Shown piece after piece: positions 15,681 to 61,300 of a stretch of 64,000 bases of DNA. The position numbers and the translations under genes are program-made. Source of the stretch: Anaerotignum sp. (GTDB taxonomy: Bacteria; Bacillota; Clostridia; Lachnospirales; Anaerotignaceae); contig JAFUMA010000124.1 of NCBI GenBank assembly GCA_017483025.1, positions 2,486 to 66,485 of the forward strand. The letters are read 5' to 3'. The notes under the pieces were generated by a model. The model worked only from the letters and a program-made list of their open reading frames with translations, made no database searches and was not told the DNA's origin. The stretch's first letter is position 1. Every line of letters starts with the position of its first letter.

Positions 15681-16652
15681 TTAGCCCATCACTCTCTGAA
15701 TCAGGTTCAGCCAGTTGCCGCCGCTTACCATTTCCAGATCTTTATCTGTAAAGCCTGCTTTTTTCATCTTTTCGATCAGTACAGGAACTTTGGAGCAGTC
15801 TTCCAGTCCTTTCAGCAGGGAATCATCCTGGTCGCTGTAGCTCTTCATGAAGTCTGTGTTCAGGAATTCGAAGAAGTCAAAGCCGAAGCCCAGATGTTCC
15901 ACACCGATCTTATCTGCGATGTAGGAAGCGTGTCTTACCAGACCGTCTACAGTCTGTTCTTCTCTGATATCGCTGACAAAATCATTGAAAGCATTCAGAC
16001 CAACCAGACCCTTTGTATCTCTGATTGCCAGCAGCTGATCGTCTGTCAGGTTTCTCGCTGCGCTTGCCAGTGCCTTCGCATTGGAATGAGAAGCCAGGAT
16101 AGGGCCATTAGAAACATCCATCACATCCCAGAAGGATTTTTCGTTGATATGGGAAACGTCCAGGATCATTTTCTTATCCTGAATTTTTTTGATAGCCTGT
16201 TTACCCAGTTCTGTTACGCCTCTGTCGGGGTTGCCCTTTACGCCTGTTGCCAGTGCGTTTTCTTCGTTCCATGTCAGCATGGCATGGCGTACGCCCAGAT
16301 CATACAGTTCGTCGATCTTGCTCAGGTCTTCGCCGATACCAGCCAGACCTTCGATACCCAGCAGTACAGCAAATTTGCCTGCTGCTTCTGCCGCTTTGAT
16401 TTCTGCTGTATTATGTACCAGAACGAAATCCTGTGTTTCTGCCATTTCTTCTTTCAGGCCTTTGATGATAGCAGCCATTTCATCCATGGGATCCAGGCCA
16501 TTGAATGTATCTGCCCAGATTACGAAGCATGCGCCGCCGATGCCGCCCTTCTGCAGTCTTTCCAGATGACGGTTTTTCAGAACCTGTGTTTCGCCCGCTT
16601 CTCTTTTATATCTAACGTCACTGAAAATATCGCTATGTCCGTCAAAAATCAT
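15681..16652 (-). CDS. Membrane-dipeptidase family (peptidase M19) protein, copy 1
   Basis: MIFDGHSD..., VRHAMLTWNEEN, DVSH, ASHSN. These are M19 renal-dipeptidase family motifs. Confidence 0.85.
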   Translation of the reverse strand: MIFDGHSDIFSDVRYKREAGETQVLKNRHLERLQKGGIGGACFVIWADTFNGLDPMDEMAAIIKGLKEEMAETQDFVLVHNTAEIKAAEAAGKFAVLLGIEGLAGIGEDLSKIDELYDLGVRHAMLTWNEENALATGVKGNPDRGVTELGKQAIKKIQDKKMILDVSHINEKSFWDVMDVSNGPILASHSNAKALASAARNLTDDQLLAIRDTKGLVGLNAFNDFVSDIREEQTVDGLVRHASYIADKIGVEHLGFGFDFFEFLNTDFMKSYSDQDDSLLKGLEDCSKVPVLIEKMKKAGFTDKDLEMVSGGNWLNLIQRVMG

Positions 16653-16734
16653 ACTTATCCCTCTTTCCTCTTTCGTGTCAAAAAAAGCCGGAAAACAAAA
16701 TTGTTCTCCGGCTTTTGGATTTTGAAGTTATTGC

Positions 16735-17706
16735 TTAGCCAACGACTCTCTTGATCAGATCAAACCAGTTGCCTGTGCAGATCATTTCCAGTTCTTTGTC
16801 GCTGAAGCCGGCTTCTTTCATTTTTTCGATCATGAAAGGAACATGAGATGCGTCTTCCAGACCTTTTGTAAATGTGTTTTCCTGATCGGAAAAAGCACCA
16901 GCAGCTTCATCATCCAGGAATTCACAGAAGTCAAAGCCCAATGCCAGATGTTCTACACCGATCTTGTTTGCGATGTAGTCAGCGTGTCTGATCAGGCCTT
17001 CTACTGTCTGTTCTTCGATTCTATTTGCTACCAGTTCATTGAAGGAATTCAGACCAATGATACCATTTGTATCTCTGATTTCCAAGAGCTGGCAGTCTGT
17101 CAGGTTTCTGGTATGGTTTTTCAGCGCCCATACGTTGGAATGGGAAGCCATCAGAGGGCCGCCGCCGATTTTTGCCATATCCCAGAAAGTACGTTCATTT
17201 GTGTGAGAAACGTCAACGATCATATGCTTATCATGCAGTTTGCGAACTGCTCTTCTGCCCAGTGCAGTCAGACCTCTGTTGGGGTCAGCTTTTGCGCCTG
17301 TTGCCAGATCGTTCTGTTCATTCCATGTCAGCATAGCATGACGTACGCCAAAATCGTACAACTCATCGATCTTATCCAGATCTGTGCCGATACCGGAAAG
17401 ACCTTCCATACCGGGCAGGATATAGAATTTACCTGCTTTTTTCGCTTCTTCGATTTCTTTGTAATTTGTTACGATAACAGCTTCTTCACATTCAGCCATT
17501 TCGTCCTTGATGCACTGCATCAGTTCACCCAATCTCTTGGGAGGATTTGCATCGTGAGGAGGATCGATCCACAGAACGAAGCAGCTGCCTTCGATGTTGC
17601 CCTTTCTCAGACGAGGCAGGTGATGATTTTTCAGTACCTGTGTTTCGCCTTTCAGTCTACGAACGGTCACGTCCGTAAAAATATCACTATGTCCGTCAAA
17701 AATCAT
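16735..17706 (-). CDS. Peptidase M19 dipeptidase, copy 2 (tandem paralogue)
   Basis: About 60% identical to copy 1 by eye alignment. Start taken at MIFDGHSD; an alternative start lies 21 nt upstream at 17727. Confidence 0.85.
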   Translation of the reverse strand: MIFDGHSDIFTDVTVRRLKGETQVLKNHHLPRLRKGNIEGSCFVLWIDPPHDANPPKRLGELMQCIKDEMAECEEAVIVTNYKEIEEAKKAGKFYILPGMEGLSGIGTDLDKIDELYDFGVRHAMLTWNEQNDLATGAKADPNRGLTALGRRAVRKLHDKHMIVDVSHTNERTFWDMAKIGGGPLMASHSNVWALKNHTRNLTDCQLLEIRDTNGIIGLNSFNELVANRIEEQTVEGLIRHADYIANKIGVEHLALGFDFCEFLDDEAAGAFSDQENTFTKGLEDASHVPFMIEKMKEAGFSDKELEMICTGNWFDLIKRVVG

Positions 17707-52104: not shown

Positions 52105-54060
52105 TTATTTTTTCAGATATTTCATCAGCATCTGTGCCGTATGGGCTCTCTGGGCATGCCCATCGGGGTTCAGTGTGCCATCCTCATTGCCGCTGATGAT
52201 GCCTGCGCCACAGGCCCACTGCATGGCAGGGATTGCATATTCGCTGATATCAAAGGCATCCTCGTAGGAAAGGATATTTGTATCTTCGCCTACGCTCACA
52301 TCATAGCCTTTGTATTTTGCATATCTCCAGAGGATGGATGCCAGCTGTTCTCTTGTCACTGCATCCGCTGCGCCGAAAGTATTGCCGTCATAGCCGGACA
52401 TAACGCCGGTTTCTGTTGCCCAGATTATAGCATCTCTGGAAGGATGGGCTTCCCCCACATCCTGGAAAAAACACTGTGTATATGCTTTAGGGTTGCCTTC
52501 TGCCGCCCACAGTGCTTCCGCTATCATGGCGCGGGTAGTCACATCATGGATGCCGAAAGTACCGTCTGCTTTGTTTTTCAAGATGCCGTTTTTCAGACAA
52601 TATGCAACGCCGTCATGATACCACTGCGTATCAGGGAAACCGTACTCCTTGCCGTCCAGTTTCGCATAACAGGGCATAAAGGCTTTGTTCAGGGCTTCCA
52701 TCCATGTTTTGCCATTGGCGCGTTTCACATCCAGCGTATTGATCATGACATCTCTGGTATTCAGCCTGTTGCCTGTGTCGGGGCTCATGATGGTGCCAAC
52801 TGCGCTGACAACATAATATTTCCCATCTACCTTACCCAGATAGATCATTTCATGTCCGGGGAAGCACAGAGCAGAACCCAGAGGCATTTCATCCAGGATC
52901 AGGCATTTCTCTTCAATAGACATATTTGTCATGTCGATTTTTTCCATATTCATGTTCCACTGCCAGTTACCGTTTCTGGCAACTTCCAGACCAAAGCAGG
53001 AATACACCGTACGCACCAGACCGGAGCAATCCTCTACATCCAGCATGCCGCCCCAGCCATAGGCATCGCCCAAATTATTGAAGGTGATCATAGCGATATT
53101 TTCCATGGTCAGAGGCAGATAACCGATATTAACCTTTGCTGTTTCAGGAATCAGCGCCATCTGTTTGCTGTAACTGCCGTCATCATTGCGTACCGGCAGA
53201 TAAACGACATAGTTATGGTAGGGAGAACGGTTGCCGATCATCTGATCGGGGGCCAGCTCTGTCACCAGCTCCAGAGCCGTGCCTGTGGTCAGCATTCTTC
53301 TGGAGGTCTGGGGTGTTTCATAAGAAGCATCGGTATAAACCTTATTGCCGTAAACCACCAGCAGGTCTTCGGAGGGCAGATCCCACGCTGAGAGCCATTC
53401 TTCCTTATTGGCACAGAGGGCTACATCCTCTGCAGGCACCCAGCCGGAACAGCTGGCAATACGCGCCAGATAATATTTCCCGTCAGCAGAAGTATTATAA
53501 ATGATCAGAGGTTCATTGACAGGCACTGCGCTGAGGGCCATATTGTCAGAATCCTTGTCATTGGGGTCATCCAACAGAAGATTTTCGCTGGGGAACACCT
53601 GCACAACAGTCCTGTTGACGGCAATGCCATAACGGGTTGGCATCACTTCCGCCGCATCGGCGTCCTGTGTATTGTCGATCATTTCCTGAAAATACGCCCA
53701 GTCGGTTTTATTGCCATCCTTATCATATGTCCAGCTCAGGTAATACTGGGCATCAGATGCAGCGGACGAAATCAGAGAAGCATTTCGGGAAATGCCATTG
53801 TATGTTTCTGCGGCTGTTTTCAGATCCATCACCATAGTTCCATCGGCAAGAAAAGTGTCCTCATTGAACGCCTTAATCTCTTCCGGTGTCAGGATCACAT
53901 CTCTGTAGCCTTCATGGTAATCCGCCCAGTAAGATGCCTGAGACATTTCCGCCGTTACATCGGGCATATAGGTGACCCCTGCCAGCGCAGGCTGCACCAT
54001 AGACACCGAAAGCGCCAGAGCCAGAGACAGGCTCAGTATTTTTTTCGGTTTATGTAACAT
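52105..54060 (-). CDS. Secreted NlpC/P60 cell-wall hydrolase with three C-terminal SLH domains
   Basis: Signal peptide and the NlpC/P60 catalytic Cys motif DCSGLVRTVY. Three SLH-like repeats follow (FPDTQW...GTF..., FQDVGEAH...GNTF..., YEDAFDIS...GTLNP). Start at MLHKPKK (GGAGGAG RBS). Confidence 0.8.
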   Translation of the reverse strand: MLHKPKKILSLSLALALSVSMVQPALAGVTYMPDVTAEMSQASYWADYHEGYRDVILTPEEIKAFNEDTFLADGTMVMDLKTAAETYNGISRNASLISSAASDAQYYLSWTYDKDGNKTDWAYFQEMIDNTQDADAAEVMPTRYGIAVNRTVVQVFPSENLLLDDPNDKDSDNMALSAVPVNEPLIIYNTSADGKYYLARIASCSGWVPAEDVALCANKEEWLSAWDLPSEDLLVVYGNKVYTDASYETPQTSRRMLTTGTALELVTELAPDQMIGNRSPYHNYVVYLPVRNDDGSYSKQMALIPETAKVNIGYLPLTMENIAMITFNNLGDAYGWGGMLDVEDCSGLVRTVYSCFGLEVARNGNWQWNMNMEKIDMTNMSIEEKCLILDEMPLGSALCFPGHEMIYLGKVDGKYYVVSAVGTIMSPDTGNRLNTRDVMINTLDVKRANGKTWMEALNKAFMPCYAKLDGKEYGFPDTQWYHDGVAYCLKNGILKNKADGTFGIHDVTTRAMIAEALWAAEGNPKAYTQCFFQDVGEAHPSRDAIIWATETGVMSGYDGNTFGAADAVTREQLASILWRYAKYKGYDVSVGEDTNILSYEDAFDISEYAIPAMQWACGAGIISGNEDGTLNPDGHAQRAHTAQMLMKYLKK

Positions 54061-54255
54061 TTCCAACTCCTCCTTTGCAGTCATATCCTGTTTGTATTGT
54101 ACCACCCTTTTACATTGCTGTCATGCAAAAGACAGAAAACCGACGGCGTAGATTGTGTTCCCATGAGAAAACCGAAAAAACGCACTGATGGGGTGCAGTA
54201 TCCGGGCAGGAAAATCCTACACAGCAAAACATACTGAAGAATAAGCAACAAAAAA

Positions 54256-54287
54256 ACACTTTGGCGCAATGGCCAAAGTGTTTTTTT
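54256..54287. terminator. Bidirectional intrinsic terminator
   Basis: A7, then ACACTTTGGC-gcaatg-GCCAAAGTGT, then T7. Confidence 0.8.
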
Positions 54288-54301
54288 ACTTTGAACATCA
54301 A

Positions 54302-55384
54302 TTAAAAATCCGAGGTAAAGTTAACAGGAATTGTCATTGTTGTGGATGTCGTTTCGGAAGTTGCTGTATCAGTTACTGTGATAGTACCTGTCCATTGGCT
54401 GCCGGAAATATCAAAGTCGCCATTGCTGGTCGCTGCTGCGAAAGATGTATCTTCAAAAAGCCATGTAATATCTTCCATGATCGCCGCAGAAACATCTTCT
54501 TCCACAGCGCCGTAATCTACATATACGCCATATGCAATATTTTCCAAAGCCAGATTCATGGCTGTTTCCAGTGTAGGCGCAGTTACAGTCAATGTTGTGG
54601 GAATGATCACATCTTCTTTTGTATCTGCAAACCATTCTGCGGGCAGTGTCCAGGAAATGGGATATGTACCGGGTTTTACAGACAGGCTGGGCTGCAGATC
54701 AGGAATCAGATAACCTTCTTCAAAATCATAGCTCATGCCCTGGCTGAATAATTCAATATCAGCATTCAGTTCATAATGATATTCGAAGAAATCGGGTTCT
54801 TCCTTGAAAGTTACGCCATCTATAGAAATGATCGTGTCCATTTCCACACCGGCTTCTGTTGTAACAGGGAATGCAGAGGCCACTTCTCCTGCGGGAACTT
54901 CGGGCAGTTTGATGGGTTCTTCTTCCTCTTCAAAGCCTTCCGCTTTTACGATGATTACGGATTTTGTCGCTTCTTCCCAGCCAACGTCATAGCCAAAGGC
55001 TTCTGCCAGATATCTGGCAGGGGCGTAGATACGGCTGTCGGCAATCACGGGTGTCGTATCCATTTCGATAAATCCTTCAACGGTTGAATAATCATTGAGG
55101 AAAGCGTGATATTCATCGACACCGACAGTGAACTCAACTGTTCCAATACCATCAGTAAAGGATGCTGTATTAGTATCATCATTCCATACAACTTCCAGTC
55201 CCAGTGCATTGGCAATAGGGCGCAGGGGCACCAGTGTGCGACTGTCTTCATTGATGAAAGGCTTTGCATCTGTCCATGCAACAGGAGTGCCTTCTACAGT
55301 TACATTAAGATCAGCAGCGAAGACTGTGGTACTCATGCCTACTGCCAGCAAAGCAGCGGAAATTATGGAAAGTATTCTTTTCAT
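54302..55384 (-). CDS. Secreted protein with an N-terminal copper-amine-oxidase-like (stalk) domain and an unassigned C-terminal region
   Basis: Signal peptide (VFAADL). Stalk pattern SRTLVPLRPIANALGLEVVWND...SRIYAPARYLAEAFGYDVGW. Confidence 0.6.
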   Translation of the reverse strand: MKRILSIISAALLAVGMSTTVFAADLNVTVEGTPVAWTDAKPFINEDSRTLVPLRPIANALGLEVVWNDDTNTASFTDGIGTVEFTVGVDEYHAFLNDYSTVEGFIEMDTTPVIADSRIYAPARYLAEAFGYDVGWEEATKSVIIVKAEGFEEEEEPIKLPEVPAGEVASAFPVTTEAGVEMDTIISIDGVTFKEEPDFFEYHYELNADIELFSQGMSYDFEEGYLIPDLQPSLSVKPGTYPISWTLPAEWFADTKEDVIIPTTLTVTAPTLETAMNLALENIAYGVYVDYGAVEEDVSAAIMEDITWLFEDTSFAAATSNGDFDISGSQWTGTITVTDTATSETTSTTMTIPVNFTSDF

Positions 55385-55609
55385 TCTTCATTCCTCCTCA
55401 TATTGAAATTCATATCATTAGCATACAATAACACTATGAATATGTCAACCAGAAGCAGACAGTTGCCTTTGCAGAGAACGCAAAAATCCCCACAGGAACC
55501 TTCCTCCCGTCACGGAAGGCAAGGAAACGCAGGGACAAAATTGAACATTTGCAGAGAACATGATAAGGCGATATAGTTTCCCATATCGTCTTTAAATAGA
55601 AACGAAAAA

Positions 55610-55643
55610 GGCATCCCAGCAAGTTTTTTCCTTGCCCGATGCC
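55610..55643 (-). terminator. Intrinsic terminator immediately after direct-repeat copy A
   Basis: Minus strand reads GGCATCGGGCAAG-gaaaaaa-CTTGCTGGGATGCC followed by TTTTT. Confidence 0.7.
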
Positions 55644-55650
55644 TTTTCAT

Positions 55651-55701
55651 AAGTGTTTCAGCCTCGTAATCCTGGTACGTGCCGAAAGAGTATGGAGGTG
55701 A
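55651..55701. repeat. Direct-repeat copy A (51 nt) of the ssrA 3' end plus its downstream flank
   Basis: By hand alignment, 39 of 51 positions are identical to 57593-57643. Both ends match perfectly: AAGTGTTTCAGCC (13 nt) and TGGAGGTGA (9 nt, the reverse complement of the last tmRNA acceptor bases). Confidence 0.65.
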
Positions 55702-56031
55702 TCCATATATCACGATTATCACTTCCAAACCTTAAGGCTATCCTTTGTAACACAGGTCGAACATTGCTTCTGCCTTCTATCGTCATTCGCCGTTTTTTAT
55801 AAGGGACATGTTTGTTATTCACGCCCACTTTCATCATTGCCGTATAGACATTCCAATACCTCTGCCGAACAAAGAACCTTTCTAATATAAATCATTATGG
55901 AGAATTCATTATTGCAGAGCTTCAGCATGAATAATCAACCTCTAAAAGAACGATTTCTTTTCCGCTTCAAAACAACCCCACTTAATGTTCCCAAAAGTTC
56001 CTTCGGATTGGAGGCTGCGGGCTCCTCGCTG

Positions 56032-56235
56032 TCACAGCAACCTTTCCACCTTTGCGATTGTCTCCTGCTCCGACAGTTCCAGATCTAAAATATCCATAAC
56101 ACGGTCTGTCAGATCAGGCTCCTTCAACACGACAGCAAAAATTTTATGACCGCCTTCATTGGAAATTTTACCGCAGCGAATCATATACTCCAACAAATCC
56201 ACCACGGGCTGTATTTTTTTACGTTTTTCTATCAT
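56032..56235 (-). CDS. Hypothetical small protein (~67 aa)
   Basis: Start at MIEKRKKIQ with GGGAG 9 nt upstream. No family recognised. The ORF-track start at 56301 is probably an over-extension. Confidence 0.3.
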   Translation of the reverse strand: MIEKRKKIQPVVDLLEYMIRCGKISNEGGHKIFAVVLKEPDLTDRVMDILDLELSEQETIAKVERLL

Positions 56236-56357
56236 TCTGCATTTCTCCCTTCTCTGACACGCAGCTGCTCTGTCTTTCTGCCTGCCTGTTATCCCTTTCA
56301 TATACTTGTGTCTATTTTACCACTACTAAATAATAAATACAATTCTATGAGATATAG

Positions 56358-57350
56358 CTATTGTTCTTCAACAGCTTCACAGTATTTTGCCAAATCTAGA
56401 TTATATATTTTTAGATTTTCCTTCTCAAATGAAGTTGCCAGCTTCCATACAAATCTATATTCTTTTTCATGAAGAAATTCTTCAGGTTTATTCATTATAA
56501 TGTCGTTCTCAGCGGTATCTTTAATAAATTGTCCAAGTTTTTCTCCCAAGAATAAGCCAGTAGAGTCCATCTCTTTACAAAAGTCCGTTACAAAATTATC
56601 CGTTTCTATAGAAATAACTTTATCGTTATACATACAATAGCCATGTAAAACTTCTGAAACCAAAAGTCCCATTTTATTAAGAGCACATGTAACTTCCTTA
56701 TGAAAGCTATTTACATCTGTTACTCTGATTAATGCTGAACTATCCTTGGCTTCATCTGGCGAAGAAAACGTTGTGCATAATACGAGAAGACTATCATCAA
56801 AACCTATATCCACTTCCATTTTTTTATTATTTTCAATTATTTCAACAATATTTCTCAATTCATACCTATCACGGCGCGCTTCATTCTCCAATGTTCTGCA
56901 TTGTTTAAATGTGGATAAAAGCAACTCCCCTTTTTTAATAAGGGCCTTAACAAAACCAGGCTGACCAAGATCTCTATACAATGCTTTTGGATCTTCAGAA
57001 TTTTTATACACGGTATGTTCTGCAGCCATCCTCCAATTCAAAGATTCTACTTGATTAATTACCCCTACCATTTCATGTGGCGCGACAACCTGATATTCAT
57101 ACTCAAGCACAGATTTCATTCCCTTTATAATTCTAAACTTATATGTAGAAAAAAATGGCTGATACTGCCACACAAATTTACGCGCATCTTCCAAAGAAGA
57201 AAATCCATAAACAATTATCTGTGCAGTTCTTCGAATCTTCATTTCTATTGGCAAATGTGGTATAGCCGTATAGCCTTCAGGCAATTGTTTCTGAATAGCT
57301 TCGTAATCAAATTCTTTAAATCTTAGTTTCTGCTGATTCATATCACTCAT
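56358..57350 (-). CDS. Orphan hypothetical protein (330 aa), AT-rich gene
   Basis: Long clean ORF with GGAGG 7 nt upstream of the ATG at 57350. No TM segment or signal peptide. No motif I can assign with confidence; there is a faint, unverified resemblance to DUF2971 in the C-terminal half (...EKEYRFVW). Confidence 0.6.
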   Translation of the reverse strand: MSDMNQQKLRFKEFDYEAIQKQLPEGYTAIPHLPIEMKIRRTAQIIVYGFSSLEDARKFVWQYQPFFSTYKFRIIKGMKSVLEYEYQVVAPHEMVGVINQVESLNWRMAAEHTVYKNSEDPKALYRDLGQPGFVKALIKKGELLLSTFKQCRTLENEARRDRYELRNIVEIIENNKKMEVDIGFDDSLLVLCTTFSSPDEAKDSSALIRVTDVNSFHKEVTCALNKMGLLVSEVLHGYCMYNDKVISIETDNFVTDFCKEMDSTGLFLGEKLGQFIKDTAENDIIMNKPEEFLHEKEYRFVWKLATSFEKENLKIYNLDLAKYCEAVEEQ

Positions 57351-57551
57351 TGCTATGACCTCCTTGTTCAAGAATCTTCTTACGATTATTGTAACATATT
57401 ACTCATAACAATAAGTCTCGATTTTCCACCTCCATTGTCAACGTGAAAATCATCTGCTGCACCCACCTTATTGAACCCCCGTCCACTGATTTCCCTAATA
57501 GTTCTTCCTGTTGTAACCTTCGTCATTTTCACTAAATTTAAGATAAAAATA

Positions 57552-57587
57552 AGGGCATCTAGCCAGTCTTTACTGGCTAAATGCCCT
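57552..57587 (-). terminator. Intrinsic terminator immediately after direct-repeat copy B (the functional ssrA terminator)
   Basis: Minus strand reads AGGGCATTTAGCCAGT-aaag-ACTGGCTAGATGCCCT followed by TATTTTT. Confidence 0.75.
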
Positions 57588-57592
57588 ATCAC

Positions 57593-57643
57593 AAGTGTTT
57601 CAGCCAGTCAATCCTTTGACGTGCTGAATGATAGTGGAGGTGA
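57593..57643. repeat. Direct-repeat copy B (ssrA 3' end plus flank)
   Basis: See copy A. Confidence 0.65.
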
Positions 57644-57990
57644 GGGGAATTGAACCCCTGTCCGAAAACCCATCCATAAGAACTTCTCCCATCACAGTCA
57701 GTCTTTTAACATTCCCTCGTTACAACGCCGAATGACAGGCTTTGTCCCTCAGTAGCTTCATGAATCTTTTCCTGCCGCAAAGCTTAGGCAGAAAAGTTCC
57801 CCACCAAGTCGATGCCGGACTCTCCGGCGGTGAGAAACCGGAGGCCGACAGGCGCCGTTAATTAGGCAGCCAGTGCAAAATTATTTTTGTCGTTTCTTTT
57901 TAAAAAAGGTTCCAGCTTGATGACGCGGTTCACTGGTCCGCGGATGGCTATCCCTACTTTCAAGACTCCCGTCGAAACCATTGCACCCCC
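57635..57990 (-). ncRNA. ssrA: tmRNA (SsrA)
   Basis: Minus strand starts GGGGGTGCAATGGTTTCGACGGG and ends GGACAGGGGTTCAATTCCCCTCACCTCCA. An internal tag frame reads ...AAT AAT TTT GCA CTG GCT GCC TAA, so the tag ends in ...NNFALAA. Lies directly downstream of smpB. Confidence 0.9.
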
Positions 57991-58034: not shown

Positions 58035-58508
58035 TTACAAAGTAAGATTTCTGATTTTAAAATCTTTTTCCGCCTGACGACGTACATCGTTCTTGGCAAT
58101 GGTATCCCTCTTGTCATAGAGTTTTTTACCTTTTGCCAGCGCCACATCTACTTTCACATAGCTGCGGTCAAAATACACCTTCAGGGGAACCACTGTATAA
58201 CCCGCTGCGCGGACTTCATGGTCCCATTTGCGGATCTGCACCTTATGCAGCAGCAGTCTTCTGGGGCGCAGAGGGTCTTTGTTGAAGATATTGCCCTGTT
58301 CGTAGGGGCTGATGTGCATGTTGTAGATGAAAGCTTCCCCATCCCTGATCTGGATGTAGCTTTCCTTCAGGCTGCACTTGCCCGCACGCAGGCTTTTCAC
58401 CTCTGTCCCAGCCAAAGAAATGCCGGCCTGTATGGTTTCTTCGATGAAGTAATCATGATATGCTTTTTTATTTTGCGCAATCAGCTTTGTTCCCTTCGCC
58501 TTTGCCAT
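58035..58508 (-). CDS. smpB: SsrA-binding protein
   Basis: IAQNKKAYHDYFIEE...GTEVKSLR...RPRRLLLHK, the SmpB signature. Confidence 0.95.
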   Translation of the reverse strand: MAKAKGTKLIAQNKKAYHDYFIEETIQAGISLAGTEVKSLRAGKCSLKESYIQIRDGEAFIYNMHISPYEQGNIFNKDPLRPRRLLLHKVQIRKWDHEVRAAGYTVVPLKVYFDRSYVKVDVALAKGKKLYDKRDTIAKNDVRRQAEKDFKIRNLTL

Positions 58509-59079: not shown

Positions 59080-61236
59080 TTACGCAAAATCTTCGAAATC
59101 TTCTTCGAAAACAAAATCAATGGTGCCCATCATACGGTCAACCTTTGCCACAGAGACAGTCACCCTGTCCCCCAGACGATAGCTTTTTCTCGTTCTTCTG
59201 CCGAAGACCAGCATATTGTTGTCGTCAAATTCGTAGTAATCATCATCCATCTGCGACAGAGAGACCATCCCTTCGATGGTATTGGGCAATTCCACATAGA
59301 TGCCCCAGTTCGTTACACCTGAGATAATACCTTCGTAAATCTCACCGACCTTGTCTTCCATGTATTCCACTTTTTTCAGGGCATCCGTATCTCTTTCCGC
59401 GTCCTCCGCAATGCGTTCCTGTTTGGAGCAATGCTTTGCCCAATCGGGCATTTTTCTGCGATAGTTCAAAGAGGATTTTTCATCCAACTCACCATGGAGC
59501 ATCTTTTTGATCATACGATGAATCTCCAGGTCGGGATATCTGCGGATGGGAGAAGTAAAGTGGCAATAATATTTTGCTGCCAGGCCAAAATGTCCGCCGT
59601 TTTCCGCTGTATATCTTGCCTGCATCATGCTGCGCAGCACCATACGGGTAATGATGCGTTCCTCATCAGTGCCTTCCGCTGTCCGCAGCACCTTCTGAAT
59701 CTCGCGAGGGTGAATTTCACCATCTTTCTTTCTCAGATGGTAGCCAAACCCCCGCAGGAACTGTTCCATTTTTTCCAGTTTTTCTTCATCAGGCTCCTGA
59801 TGGCTGCGGTACATGAAGGGCATTTCCTGCCAGAAAGAATTTTCCGCGATGGTCTCGTTGCACACCAGCATGAATTCCTCGATCATATTTGTGGCGATGC
59901 TTCTTTCATAAGGCTTGATATCGATGGGCTTGCCGTTTTCATCCAGAATGATTTTGGATTCGGGCAGATCGAAATTCACAGAACCACGTTTTCTTCTCTT
60001 TGTGCCTAAAATCTGACGCAACTCTTCCATATCATCCAGCATGGGCAGAATTTCCGCATACTGTTCCAGCAGTTCAGGGGTTTCATCCTCCAGAATTTCT
60101 CTTACGGCTGTATACGTCATACGATAGTTGGAATTAATGAGCGTTTCCGCAATGCGATGGGCAACCACTTCACCTTTGCGGTCGATTTCCATGATACAGC
60201 TGAGAGCCAGTCTGTCCACATGGGGATTCAGGGAACAGATGCCGTTGCTCAGCTTATGGGGCAGCATAGGAATGACCCTATCCACCAGATACACACTGGT
60301 ACCTCTTGCGTAGGCTTCTTTATCCAATTCTGTATATTCACGCACATAGTGGGAAACATCCGCAATATGCACGCCCAATTCAAAATTGCCGTTGTTCAGC
60401 TTCTGCAGGGAAATGGCGTCGTCCAAATCCTTGGCATCCTCGCCATCAATGGTGATGGTCAGCAGGTCTCGCAGGTCTTCTCTGCCTTTTTTATCTTCCT
60501 CCGCCACCTCTGTGCCCAGATTTTCGATTTCCTTATACACTTCCTCGGGGAATTCCACCGCCAGTTCATACCTGCGAATGACGGAAAGGATATCTACACC
60601 GGGGTCGTTCACATGGCCCAAAATCTCCACAACTTTCCCCTCGGGGTTGCGTCTGTCCTCGCCGTAATCAATGATTTCCACCACAACTTTGTGGCCTGTC
60701 ACAGCCCCTTTGGTATGGTCTCTGGAAACAAAAATATCCTTGGCAATTTTCTTATCATCCGCAACCACGAAGCCATAGCCTTTGCTTCCCGCTTCAAAGG
60801 TACCAACGATGCGCTGCTGTCCTCTTTCCAGAATACGTACAATGACACCATCGGCCTTTTTCCCCTTTTCCGCTTTATGCAGCACTTTATAGAGGACTTT
60901 ATCCTTCTGCATGGCACCCATGGTTTCACTGGCAGGAATAAAGATATCATCGCCTCCTTCATCGGGCGTCACGAAGCCAAACCCTCTGGCATGTCCAATA
61001 AAAGAGCCTGTTGCCATCTGCAGGTCTTTCGGAGAAGCCAGCTTCCCTTTTTTCGTTTCAAAAATACGGCCTTCATTCAGCAGCTCGTCGATCACAGCCT
61101 CAAATTTTTCTCTATCTTCCGCAGGAACAGAAAGCATAGCGCGCATATCCCTGCGCTTCATGGGCACATAATCTTCGCTTTCAATATATGCTAAAATCCG
61201 CTCTTTTCTTTCTTTTAAAATATCAATTTCTTCCAT
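59080..61236 (-). CDS. rnr: Ribonuclease R
   Basis: RNB domain (TIDGEDAKDLDDAIS), cold-shock-like OB folds and a C-terminal S1 domain (GEIYEGIISGVTNWGIYVEL). Start at MEEIDIL (GGAG RBS). Confidence 0.9.
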   Translation of the reverse strand: MEEIDILKERKERILAYIESEDYVPMKRRDMRAMLSVPAEDREKFEAVIDELLNEGRIFETKKGKLASPKDLQMATGSFIGHARGFGFVTPDEGGDDIFIPASETMGAMQKDKVLYKVLHKAEKGKKADGVIVRILERGQQRIVGTFEAGSKGYGFVVADDKKIAKDIFVSRDHTKGAVTGHKVVVEIIDYGEDRRNPEGKVVEILGHVNDPGVDILSVIRRYELAVEFPEEVYKEIENLGTEVAEEDKKGREDLRDLLTITIDGEDAKDLDDAISLQKLNNGNFELGVHIADVSHYVREYTELDKEAYARGTSVYLVDRVIPMLPHKLSNGICSLNPHVDRLALSCIMEIDRKGEVVAHRIAETLINSNYRMTYTAVREILEDETPELLEQYAEILPMLDDMEELRQILGTKRRKRGSVNFDLPESKIILDENGKPIDIKPYERSIATNMIEEFMLVCNETIAENSFWQEMPFMYRSHQEPDEEKLEKMEQFLRGFGYHLRKKDGEIHPREIQKVLRTAEGTDEERIITRMVLRSMMQARYTAENGGHFGLAAKYYCHFTSPIRRYPDLEIHRMIKKMLHGELDEKSSLNYRRKMPDWAKHCSKQERIAEDAERDTDALKKVEYMEDKVGEIYEGIISGVTNWGIYVELPNTIEGMVSLSQMDDDYYEFDDNNMLVFGRRTRKSYRLGDRVTVSVAKVDRMMGTIDFVFEEDFEDFA

Positions 61237-61300
61237 AGAATTTCTCCTTCTATTCTCCTGTTTTGCCTTATCTTTCCCCAAATCTTCTCATTCTATAAAA

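Follow-up and report, generated by a model that had tools for sequence, protein, structure and literature searches.

What does a 1.9-kb islet lodged at the 3' end of a transfer-messenger RNA (tmRNA) gene bring to its bacterial host? The question is raised by a 64,000-nucleotide stretch of Anaerotignum sp. DNA (assembly GCA_017483025.1, contig JAFUMA010000124.1; hereafter the window), in which the islet behind ssrA carries a gene for a protein of 330 amino acids (aa) followed by a coding sequence (CDS) of 67 aa. Both CDSs were confirmed in the open reading frame (ORF) list of the window and both lie on the minus strand, as do all other window features described below. An earlier note, made from the sequence, had presented the pair as a candidate for an uncharacterised accessory module of anti-phage or abortive-infection-like type. 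The foreign origin of the large gene and the defence-linked character of its family are retained here, while the two-gene or toxin-pair part of that proposal gives way to a single gene. The 330-aa gene is regarded, with somewhat less than even confidence, as a stand-alone, horizontally acquired gene that would encode a single-gene anti-phage effector of the abortive infection (Abi) type, distantly related to DUF2971 and proteins resembling ADP-ribosyltransferases (ARTs).

The islet is a genuine insertion at the ssrA 3' end. Among 80 smpB-ssrA loci taken from species-representative genomes, the closest one (L015; SmpB 97% identical) shows ssrA followed by a terminator, that is, an empty site. 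In a three-way alignment the left half of this site is identical to window positions 57643-57593 and the right half matches 55650-55596; the site of L015 is attB-like, an exact hybrid of both repeat copies, and relative to it the insert measures 1,942 bp from repeat start to repeat start. The integration target is the 3' end of ssrA (57632-57990; Rfam RF00023, 167 bits, E = 1.9e-67), whose tmRNA carries the tag peptide DKNNFALAA according to ARAGORN. The flanking direct repeats (D1; 75 nt, 73% identity) are imperfect and open with the final ~10 nt of the tmRNA; a core of 13 nt, GGCTGAAACACTT, is the same in both without a mismatch. The attL-like copy A (57551-57643) is made of ~10 nt of tmRNA end, a 50-nt stretch that L015 has unchanged at its empty site, the core (57593-57605) and, brought in by the element, a terminator hairpin (57552-57587, detected by terminator scan). 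The attR-like copy B (55596-55701) contains a diverged tmRNA 3' end, the core (55651-55663, located like that of copy A by repeat comparison) and the native ssrA terminator as in L015. No integrase or recombinase was detected between the repeats, which enclose the 330-aa and 67-aa genes, neither with such a Pfam match, and short ORFs, those at 55400-56030 not having been scanned for integrase remnants. Upstream of the islet, on the same strand as the 330-aa gene, are smpB (58035-58508) and rnr (59080-61281).

The 330-aa CDS (56358-57350) reads from an ATG at 57350 down to 56358; a TTG located seven codons before the ATG is an alternative start that would yield 337 aa. A ribosome-binding site (RBS), AAGGAGG (57359-57365), is located 8 nt 5' of the ATG. 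The leader (57351-57550), delimited by sequence reading and repeat D10 and conserved in the related contig L095, includes a candidate extended -10 promoter, TGTTACAAT (57388-57396), which as read from the sequence could possibly drive the 330-aa gene, as well as a 15-nt tmRNA T-arm-like remnant, ATTGAACCCCCGTCC (57470-57484; sequence and repeat D10). A second, 'permuted' tmRNA called by ARAGORN at 57087-57728, overlapping the 330-aa gene, was rejected as an artefact of this remnant (Rfam 23.8 bits vs a gathering score of 47). The GC content of the gene is 0.336 vs 0.469 in the window. Asp, Glu, Lys and Arg make up 29% of the protein, which has a pI of 5.3 and is considered free of transmembrane segments because its top Kyte-Doolittle 19-residue window reaches only 0.91. 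The good GGAGG RBS, the AT-rich and foreign composition, the charged and soluble nature of the product and the location at an ssrA hot spot, all claimed in the earlier note, are thus confirmed, the last by the empty site of L015 and the attL/attR-like repeats. The ratio of non-synonymous to synonymous substitution rates (dN/dS) is 0.18 against L095 and 0.13 against L003, and 0.13 between the homologues of L001 and L006; purifying selection acts on the gene. An identical protein is deposited as MBQ7759463.1, a hypothetical protein of Anaerotignum sp.

The contig L095, which encodes an 83%-identical homologue, provides a view on how such islets may be assembled. In this contig the att-plus-leader unit (last 9 nt of the tmRNA, terminator, T-arm remnant, leader and promoter) occurs twice, with 95% identity, flanking the gene; the copies at 155-397 and 1445-1687 correspond to window positions 57643-57388, and the second, beyond which the contig ends, follows directly after the gene. 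The duplicate unit suggests tandem stacking of small integrase-less cassettes at ssrA. A scan of JGI metagenome contigs with leader 24-mers recovered one contig only (L104), which is unrelated.

The earlier note had recognised no family in the 330-aa protein, which proved too strong a statement. No significant match was obtained in Pfam, NCBIfam or PADLOC. When 5.8 billion proteins are clustered at 90% identity, 20 clusters belong to the close family, all unnamed and none with a Pfam domain; an alignment of 20 homologues, the most distant sharing 37% identity, keeps 42 columns invariant. With a profile, searched against 1.84 billion representatives, the family grows to 466 proteins at E <= 1e-3; many of these measure 200-250 aa and are matched over positions 118-326 only. 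The protein matches phrog_13198 (E = 1.5e-7; aa 184-328 vs profile positions 107-227 of 230), a profile that is also matched by 124 of 126 relatives (best E = 1.1e-17). Weak matches to Anti-RecBCD_p2 (E = 0.022, under threshold) and to PilN and POTRA_2 (sub-threshold and incoherent) were treated as chance or local similarity. The close family was not confirmed in GTDB species-representative genomes, in IMG/VR viral contigs, or by tblastn in phage and plasmid records. A member of the C-terminal domain family, a non-annotated ORF of 231 aa, is carried by Klebsiella temperate phages (e.g. KY271401; 98 bits vs the family hidden Markov model, HMM), at L103 4959-5654, equivalent to about 16132-16827 of KY271401.1 on its minus strand. 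The ORF recurs in OK490430 and in nine Klebsiella prophage records that resemble it. It lies between HNH/small-terminase genes and lysis genes on the opposite strand, a typical moron position.

Defence genes were found within about 3 kb of the homologue in all five independent contexts, which derive from seven loci; neighbours were assigned by PADLOC HMMs unless marked as Pfam. In L001/L002 these are DndD (E = 2.6e-93), DndE and a SIR2-pAgo fusion (1374 bits), together with a serine recombinase and a SHOCT protein (both Pfam). The locus L004 contains ThsB (5e-103), ThsA (1e-90), AbiLi (1.7e-69) and AbiLii, the AbiLi/AbiLii genes ending 376 nt upstream of the homologue, and a Fic gene downstream (Pfam). 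An AbiLi-like ATPase (5.7e-30) is divergently transcribed in L005; in L006/L007 the type I restriction-modification genes HsdM and HsdS lie directly upstream and a relaxase downstream (Pfam); and in L003 a KAP NTPase, PDC-S49 (3.4e-25), is located 2.6 kb downstream. Of two remote stand-alone members of the C-terminal domain whose surroundings were inspected, P0254 resides in an integrase island with an HATPase_c_3 protein and RHS toxin genes. The location in defence islands to which the earlier note had looked is thus observed for the homologues. The SIR2-pAgo fusion of L001 (2857-6003) is a single chain of 1048 aa, encoded next to dndD/dndE and a 380-aa serine recombinase, 2 kb from the homologue.

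An all-against-all comparison revealed no gene neighbour conserved across the homologue loci, which points to a single-gene system. The sole recurrent neighbour pair consists of a 139-aa ORF in L004 (9141-9560, downstream of the homologue) and a 134-aa ORF in L006 (3103-3507, upstream), 43% identical and without a significant Pfam family. These ~135-aa ORFs are missing from the window, and a conserved partner gene was rejected.

The structure predicted by AlphaFold2 (AF2) from the close-family alignment (predicted local distance difference test, pLDDT, 82; predicted template modelling score, pTM, 0.80) divides the protein into two parts. The N-terminal domain (aa 1-115; 57006-57350) adopts in the model, over about aa 30-115, a ferredoxin-like fold of the order beta-alpha-beta-beta-alpha-beta; no more than 54 of 140 relatives possess this domain. 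Foldseek searches with the full-length model against PDB and BFVD gave generic, weak matches of PII/ACT/E2/RRM-like ferredoxin type, confined to this domain. The C-terminal domain (aa 116-330; 56361-57005), delimited by the phrog_13198 match and the AF2 model, is an alpha/beta domain which, when modelled alone with 140 sequences, reaches a pLDDT of 95.4 and a pTM of 0.90. Conservation was computed over these 140 sequences in the numbering of the 330-aa protein. The conserved positions are [YF]-R126 (95%), [ST]146 (94%), R159/D161/E164, [CS]192-x-[ST]194 (100%; position 194 is Thr in the 330-aa protein), G237-x-C239-x-Y241 (Tyr 100%), K288 (100%), position 295 (Glu 66%, Gln 30%), E297 (100%) followed by [YF]-R299 (Arg 100%), and W302. 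In the model [YF]R126 is placed on the first strand, [ST]146 at the end of the second and [CS]192-x-[ST]194 on the fifth, and [EQ]295-x-E297 (ExE codons 56460-56468, by conserved-residue mapping) opens the ninth. Judged from the alignment, the residue order fits the pattern of R-S-E clade ARTs (Arg on beta1, S-x-S/STS, [QE]xE), and Glu or Gln at 295 with E297 reads as the classical [QE]xE pattern.

DUF2971 is the sole recurrent weak Pfam match of the family: 21 of 140 relatives match it at E <= 5 (best E = 9e-4), a count to be compared with the ~0.03 matches that chance alone would give any single family. Five of nine subgroup consensus sequences match at 13-20 bits (gathering threshold 22 bits). 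Each of these matches begins near model position 20 (or 56) and continues to the last one, 89; by estimated position, this end coincides with the E-x-E-[YF]-R motif of the family or lies shortly before it. A published analysis (PMC12522546) predicts DUF2971 to be an ART akin to DarT and AbiGi and describes a Tyr that is strictly conserved, together with a motif of the form ExE. Both hallmarks, the latter C-terminal, have invariant counterparts in Y241 and E297 (100%). Because the matches are recurrent and co-linear and the motifs are shared, the resemblance is considered real, if sub-threshold, and the faint DUF2971 flavour perceived in the earlier note was well founded. The C-terminal domain would accordingly represent a very divergent member of the DUF2971/AbiGi/DarT ART-like neighbourhood.

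How such a protein might act can be outlined by analogy. DarT, the effector of DarTG, is an NAD+-dependent ADP-ribosylating enzyme that blocks phage replication. In the 330-aa protein R126 on beta1, S146 or C192-x-T194, Y241 and E295-x-E297 are candidate catalytic residues, and the N-terminal ferredoxin-like domain may be a sensor or autoinhibitory module. When a phage infects the cell, the enzyme would draw on NAD+ to modify either some essential protein or a nucleic acid, which would halt phage transcription or replication; this mode of action has been proposed for Aristaios and demonstrated for DarT. With its 316 aa, Aristaios is a DUF2971 protein validated as a single-gene lactococcal Abi system (PMC11381338), and phage transcription is the process with which it interferes (PMC13064643).

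Several observations weigh against this reading. The anti-phage function is putative, proposed through guilt by association and the analogy with Aristaios. In the window itself no other defence gene lies beside the islet, and the remote stand-alone member P0234 is an orphan amid metabolic genes. In PADLOC-DB v2 the 330-aa protein has no match at E <= 10, and the 126 relatives gave only four weak matches, all to PDC-S31 (best E = 2.9e-4). The 330-aa protein does not match DUF2971 even at E <= 10, and no match of the family reaches the 22-bit gathering score, which leaves it outside PF11185. The C-terminal domain model found no good counterpart in the PDB by Foldseek (best E = 0.6, TM-score < 0.2; the 50 best matches listed include no ART), the full-length model none in BFVD beyond the generic ferredoxin-like similarity of the N-terminal domain, and searches of PDB sequences with the protein and with the family profile returned no match. 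Transferase chemistry is something we infer only, because the C-terminal domain model, with a pLDDT of 95, lacks a Foldseek match in the PDB.

These last results favour an alternative in which the defence role is kept and the chemistry is new, the C-terminal domain being a fold or enzyme unrelated to ARTs and its resemblance to DUF2971 a convergent short motif. A model of such quality (pLDDT 95.4) has no structural neighbour in the PDB, no solved structure is matched in sequence by the protein or its profile, the DUF2971 similarity always remains under the Pfam threshold, and D161, E164, C239, K288 and R299 are invariant outside the ART triad. Against it stand the co-linearity of the DUF2971 matches and their recurrence in 21 of 140 members against ~0.03 expected by chance, and [QE]xE with an upstream aromatic-Arg pair is typical of ARTs; the alternative is considered unlikely. 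Its broadest form, also doubtful, is that the C-terminal domain defines a new fold or class and with it a novel single-gene anti-phage system, thinly spread across bacteria and prophages (at least 466 representatives, equivalent to phrog_13198) and delivered here by mini-cassettes of ~1.3 kb that lack an integrase, are each equipped with an att site, a terminator and a promoter, and line up in tandem at ssrA.

Another explanation, likewise rated improbable, is that the gene serves the mobile element or phage that carries it, be it as a takeover moron, in anti-defence, in superinfection exclusion, or as an addiction or stabilisation toxin of small cassettes. The identity of the C-terminal domain family with phrog_13198, the moron position of the member in Klebsiella temperate phages, the serine recombinases (L001/L002) and the relaxase (L006) adjoining homologues, and the 95%-identical att-plus-leader repeats flanking the cassette of L095 are all consistent with this idea. 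It is countered by the absence of the close family from IMG/VR viral contigs, phage records and plasmid records, and by the situation of the window gene, which resides in a 1.9-kb islet devoid of phage, plasmid or recombinase genes. Morons in the type of position seen in Klebsiella are often defence genes, and for this reason the explanation overlaps with a single-gene anti-phage effector.

It is highly improbable that the gene is cargo without function or in decay, left behind by an integrative element that has degenerated. The lack of an integrase in the islet, the T-arm remnant of a tmRNA in the leader and the rarity of the family would suit it; the intact reading frame with its strong RBS, the dN/dS of 0.13-0.18 in three pairs, the 42 invariant columns over 20 homologues and the confident fold prediction speak against it.

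The 67-aa CDS (56032-56235) starts 122 nt downstream of the 330-aa gene on the same strand, in agreement with the spacing of ~120 nt given in the earlier note, and its product is conserved (33 clusters, 28 invariant residues). It belongs to a shared DNA block (55993-56360) that includes a putative promoter, an RBS and the CDS: the promoter-like site TTGTAT-17-TAAAAT and the RBS GAAGGGAG would give the small gene its own expression signals. The same block recurs with 88-95% identity and the same boundaries in L011-14, L096 and L097. In L096 (763-1129) and L097 (1215-1606), whose tmRNAs are 97-98% identical to that of the window, it follows ssrA and the 330-aa gene is missing. In L011-14 (88% identical; L011 4884-5238) it adjoins a 521-aa serine recombinase, and a 69%-identical version of the block is found between flavodoxin and EamA genes in L008/L009 (L008 5827-6011). 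A block of ~370 bp with the same edges hence occurs in at least four unrelated contexts, namely ssrA, the serine recombinase, flavodoxin/EamA and the 330-aa gene. Upstream, the block ends exactly at the TAG that terminates the 330-aa gene, and this edge resembles a recombination hot spot. The small gene is present at none of the seven loci of 330-aa homologues, and neither gene occurs among the 80 ssrA/smpB loci of species-representative genomes.

Because each gene occurs without the other and the block edge coincides with the stop codon, the two are regarded as independent units that are adjacent by chance; the insert is a mosaic of two cassettes with independent distribution. Since the genes do not co-occur elsewhere, a toxin-antitoxin or other two-component reading lacks support and the candidate is a single-gene system; the small gene is judged, from the comparison of loci, to play no part in the function of the 330-aa gene. 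The two-gene module of the earlier note, be it toxin and antitoxin or effector and regulator, can draw on the shared strand, the 122-nt gap in which the terminator scan found no terminator and the common 1.94-kb att-bounded insert, but is hardly credible at all and is refuted by the missing co-occurrence at homologue, ssrA/smpB and L096/L097 loci, with the unrelated settings of the small gene, its own promoter-like site and RBS, a GC content of 0.422 vs 0.336 and the mutually unrelated genes downstream of the homologues further opposing it. The 67-aa protein, also as a profile against PDB sequences, has no match in Pfam, NCBIfam or PDB. A JetB match of the small ORF (E = 0.0056, below threshold) and a PF10431 match of one of its relatives were taken as chance or local similarity.

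Downstream of the islet the window encodes a 360-aa secreted protein with a Cu_amine_oxidN1 domain (54302-55384) and a 666-aa secreted protein with SH3b, NlpC/P60 and three SLH domains (52105-54105). In L016 (SmpB 96%) a homologue of the 666-aa SLH/NlpC-P60 gene comes directly after ssrA and the 360-aa gene is missing; the entire stretch 54077-57634 therefore varies between species. One locus of the collection, L018 (CAVHYX010000006.1), is labelled 'Sodaliphilus sp.' (Bacteroidota), and its SmpB is 94% and its DNA 83% identical to the Anaerotignum window; the metagenome-assembled genome was probably binned or labelled wrongly.

The family lacks annotation and is absent from defence libraries, and it would most plausibly be placed at the edge of the known DUF2971/AbiGi-like single-gene Abi effectors; the 330-aa gene is a plausible candidate that it would be reasonable to test, and not a surprising one. 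Provided that the defence role holds, a rare phrog_13198-matching family outside Pfam, NCBIfam and PADLOC becomes a single-gene anti-phage effector, the putative DUF2971/DarT/AbiGi-like ART group is extended, with a sensor-domain fusion, into gut Lachnospirales, and roughly 470 representative sequences, including the Klebsiella prophage morons, gain an annotation. The locus also shows the build-up of very small, recombinase-less cargo cassettes at ssrA, a pattern that can be used as bait for accessory genes.

Compared with known systems, the insert resembles ssrA-integrated islets in that it starts at the tmRNA 3' end, is bounded by repeats and has an empty site in a relative. It differs from them by its size of 1.94 kb, the lack of an integrase or recombinase, its two-cassette mosaic structure and the tandem att-plus-leader unit seen in L095. 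The phrog_13198 family (PHROGs v4, function not annotated) has a profile of ~230 positions that is matched by the C-terminal domain only, the 330-aa protein adding an N-terminal domain of 115 aa. DarT is proposed as a mechanistic analogue, DUF2971 having been reported as similar to it (PMC12522546). It differs from the 330-aa gene, which is accompanied neither by a DarG-like macrodomain partner nor by any other conserved partner; DarT (PF14487) is not among the Pfam matches listed for the family and the C-terminal domain model has no structural match.

Further parallels are offered by Lsan_0116, Lsan_2474 and AbiGi, described as distant DUF2971 relatives in bacteria and phages, with motifs [RK]Y[ML] / [CS]WH / ExE in Lsan_0116 and K / [CS]Mx / QxE in Lsan_2474 (PMC12522546). 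By these published descriptions the [YF]-R-[YF..], [CS]x[ST] and [EQ]xE motifs of the 330-aa family may be likened to theirs, and motif I of the Klebsiella phage member has the sequence K-Y-M; motif II of the family, in contrast, fits neither published pattern. No significant AbiG match was obtained with the PADLOC library, which is assumed to hold AbiG models, and no AbiGi appears among the Pfam matches listed. With respect to DUF2971 itself, the family has an Arg at motif I in place of a poorly conserved His, and shows invariant D161, E164, C239 and K288; the 330-aa protein has in addition an N-terminal ferredoxin-like domain. DUF2971 and the 330-aa family share, on the other hand, the C-terminal E-x-E-[YW]-R motif, the strictly conserved Tyr and co-linear, sub-threshold HMM similarity and, with Aristaios as the reference, a similar size, a single-gene organisation (shown for Aristaios) and residence in mobile elements and defence islands.

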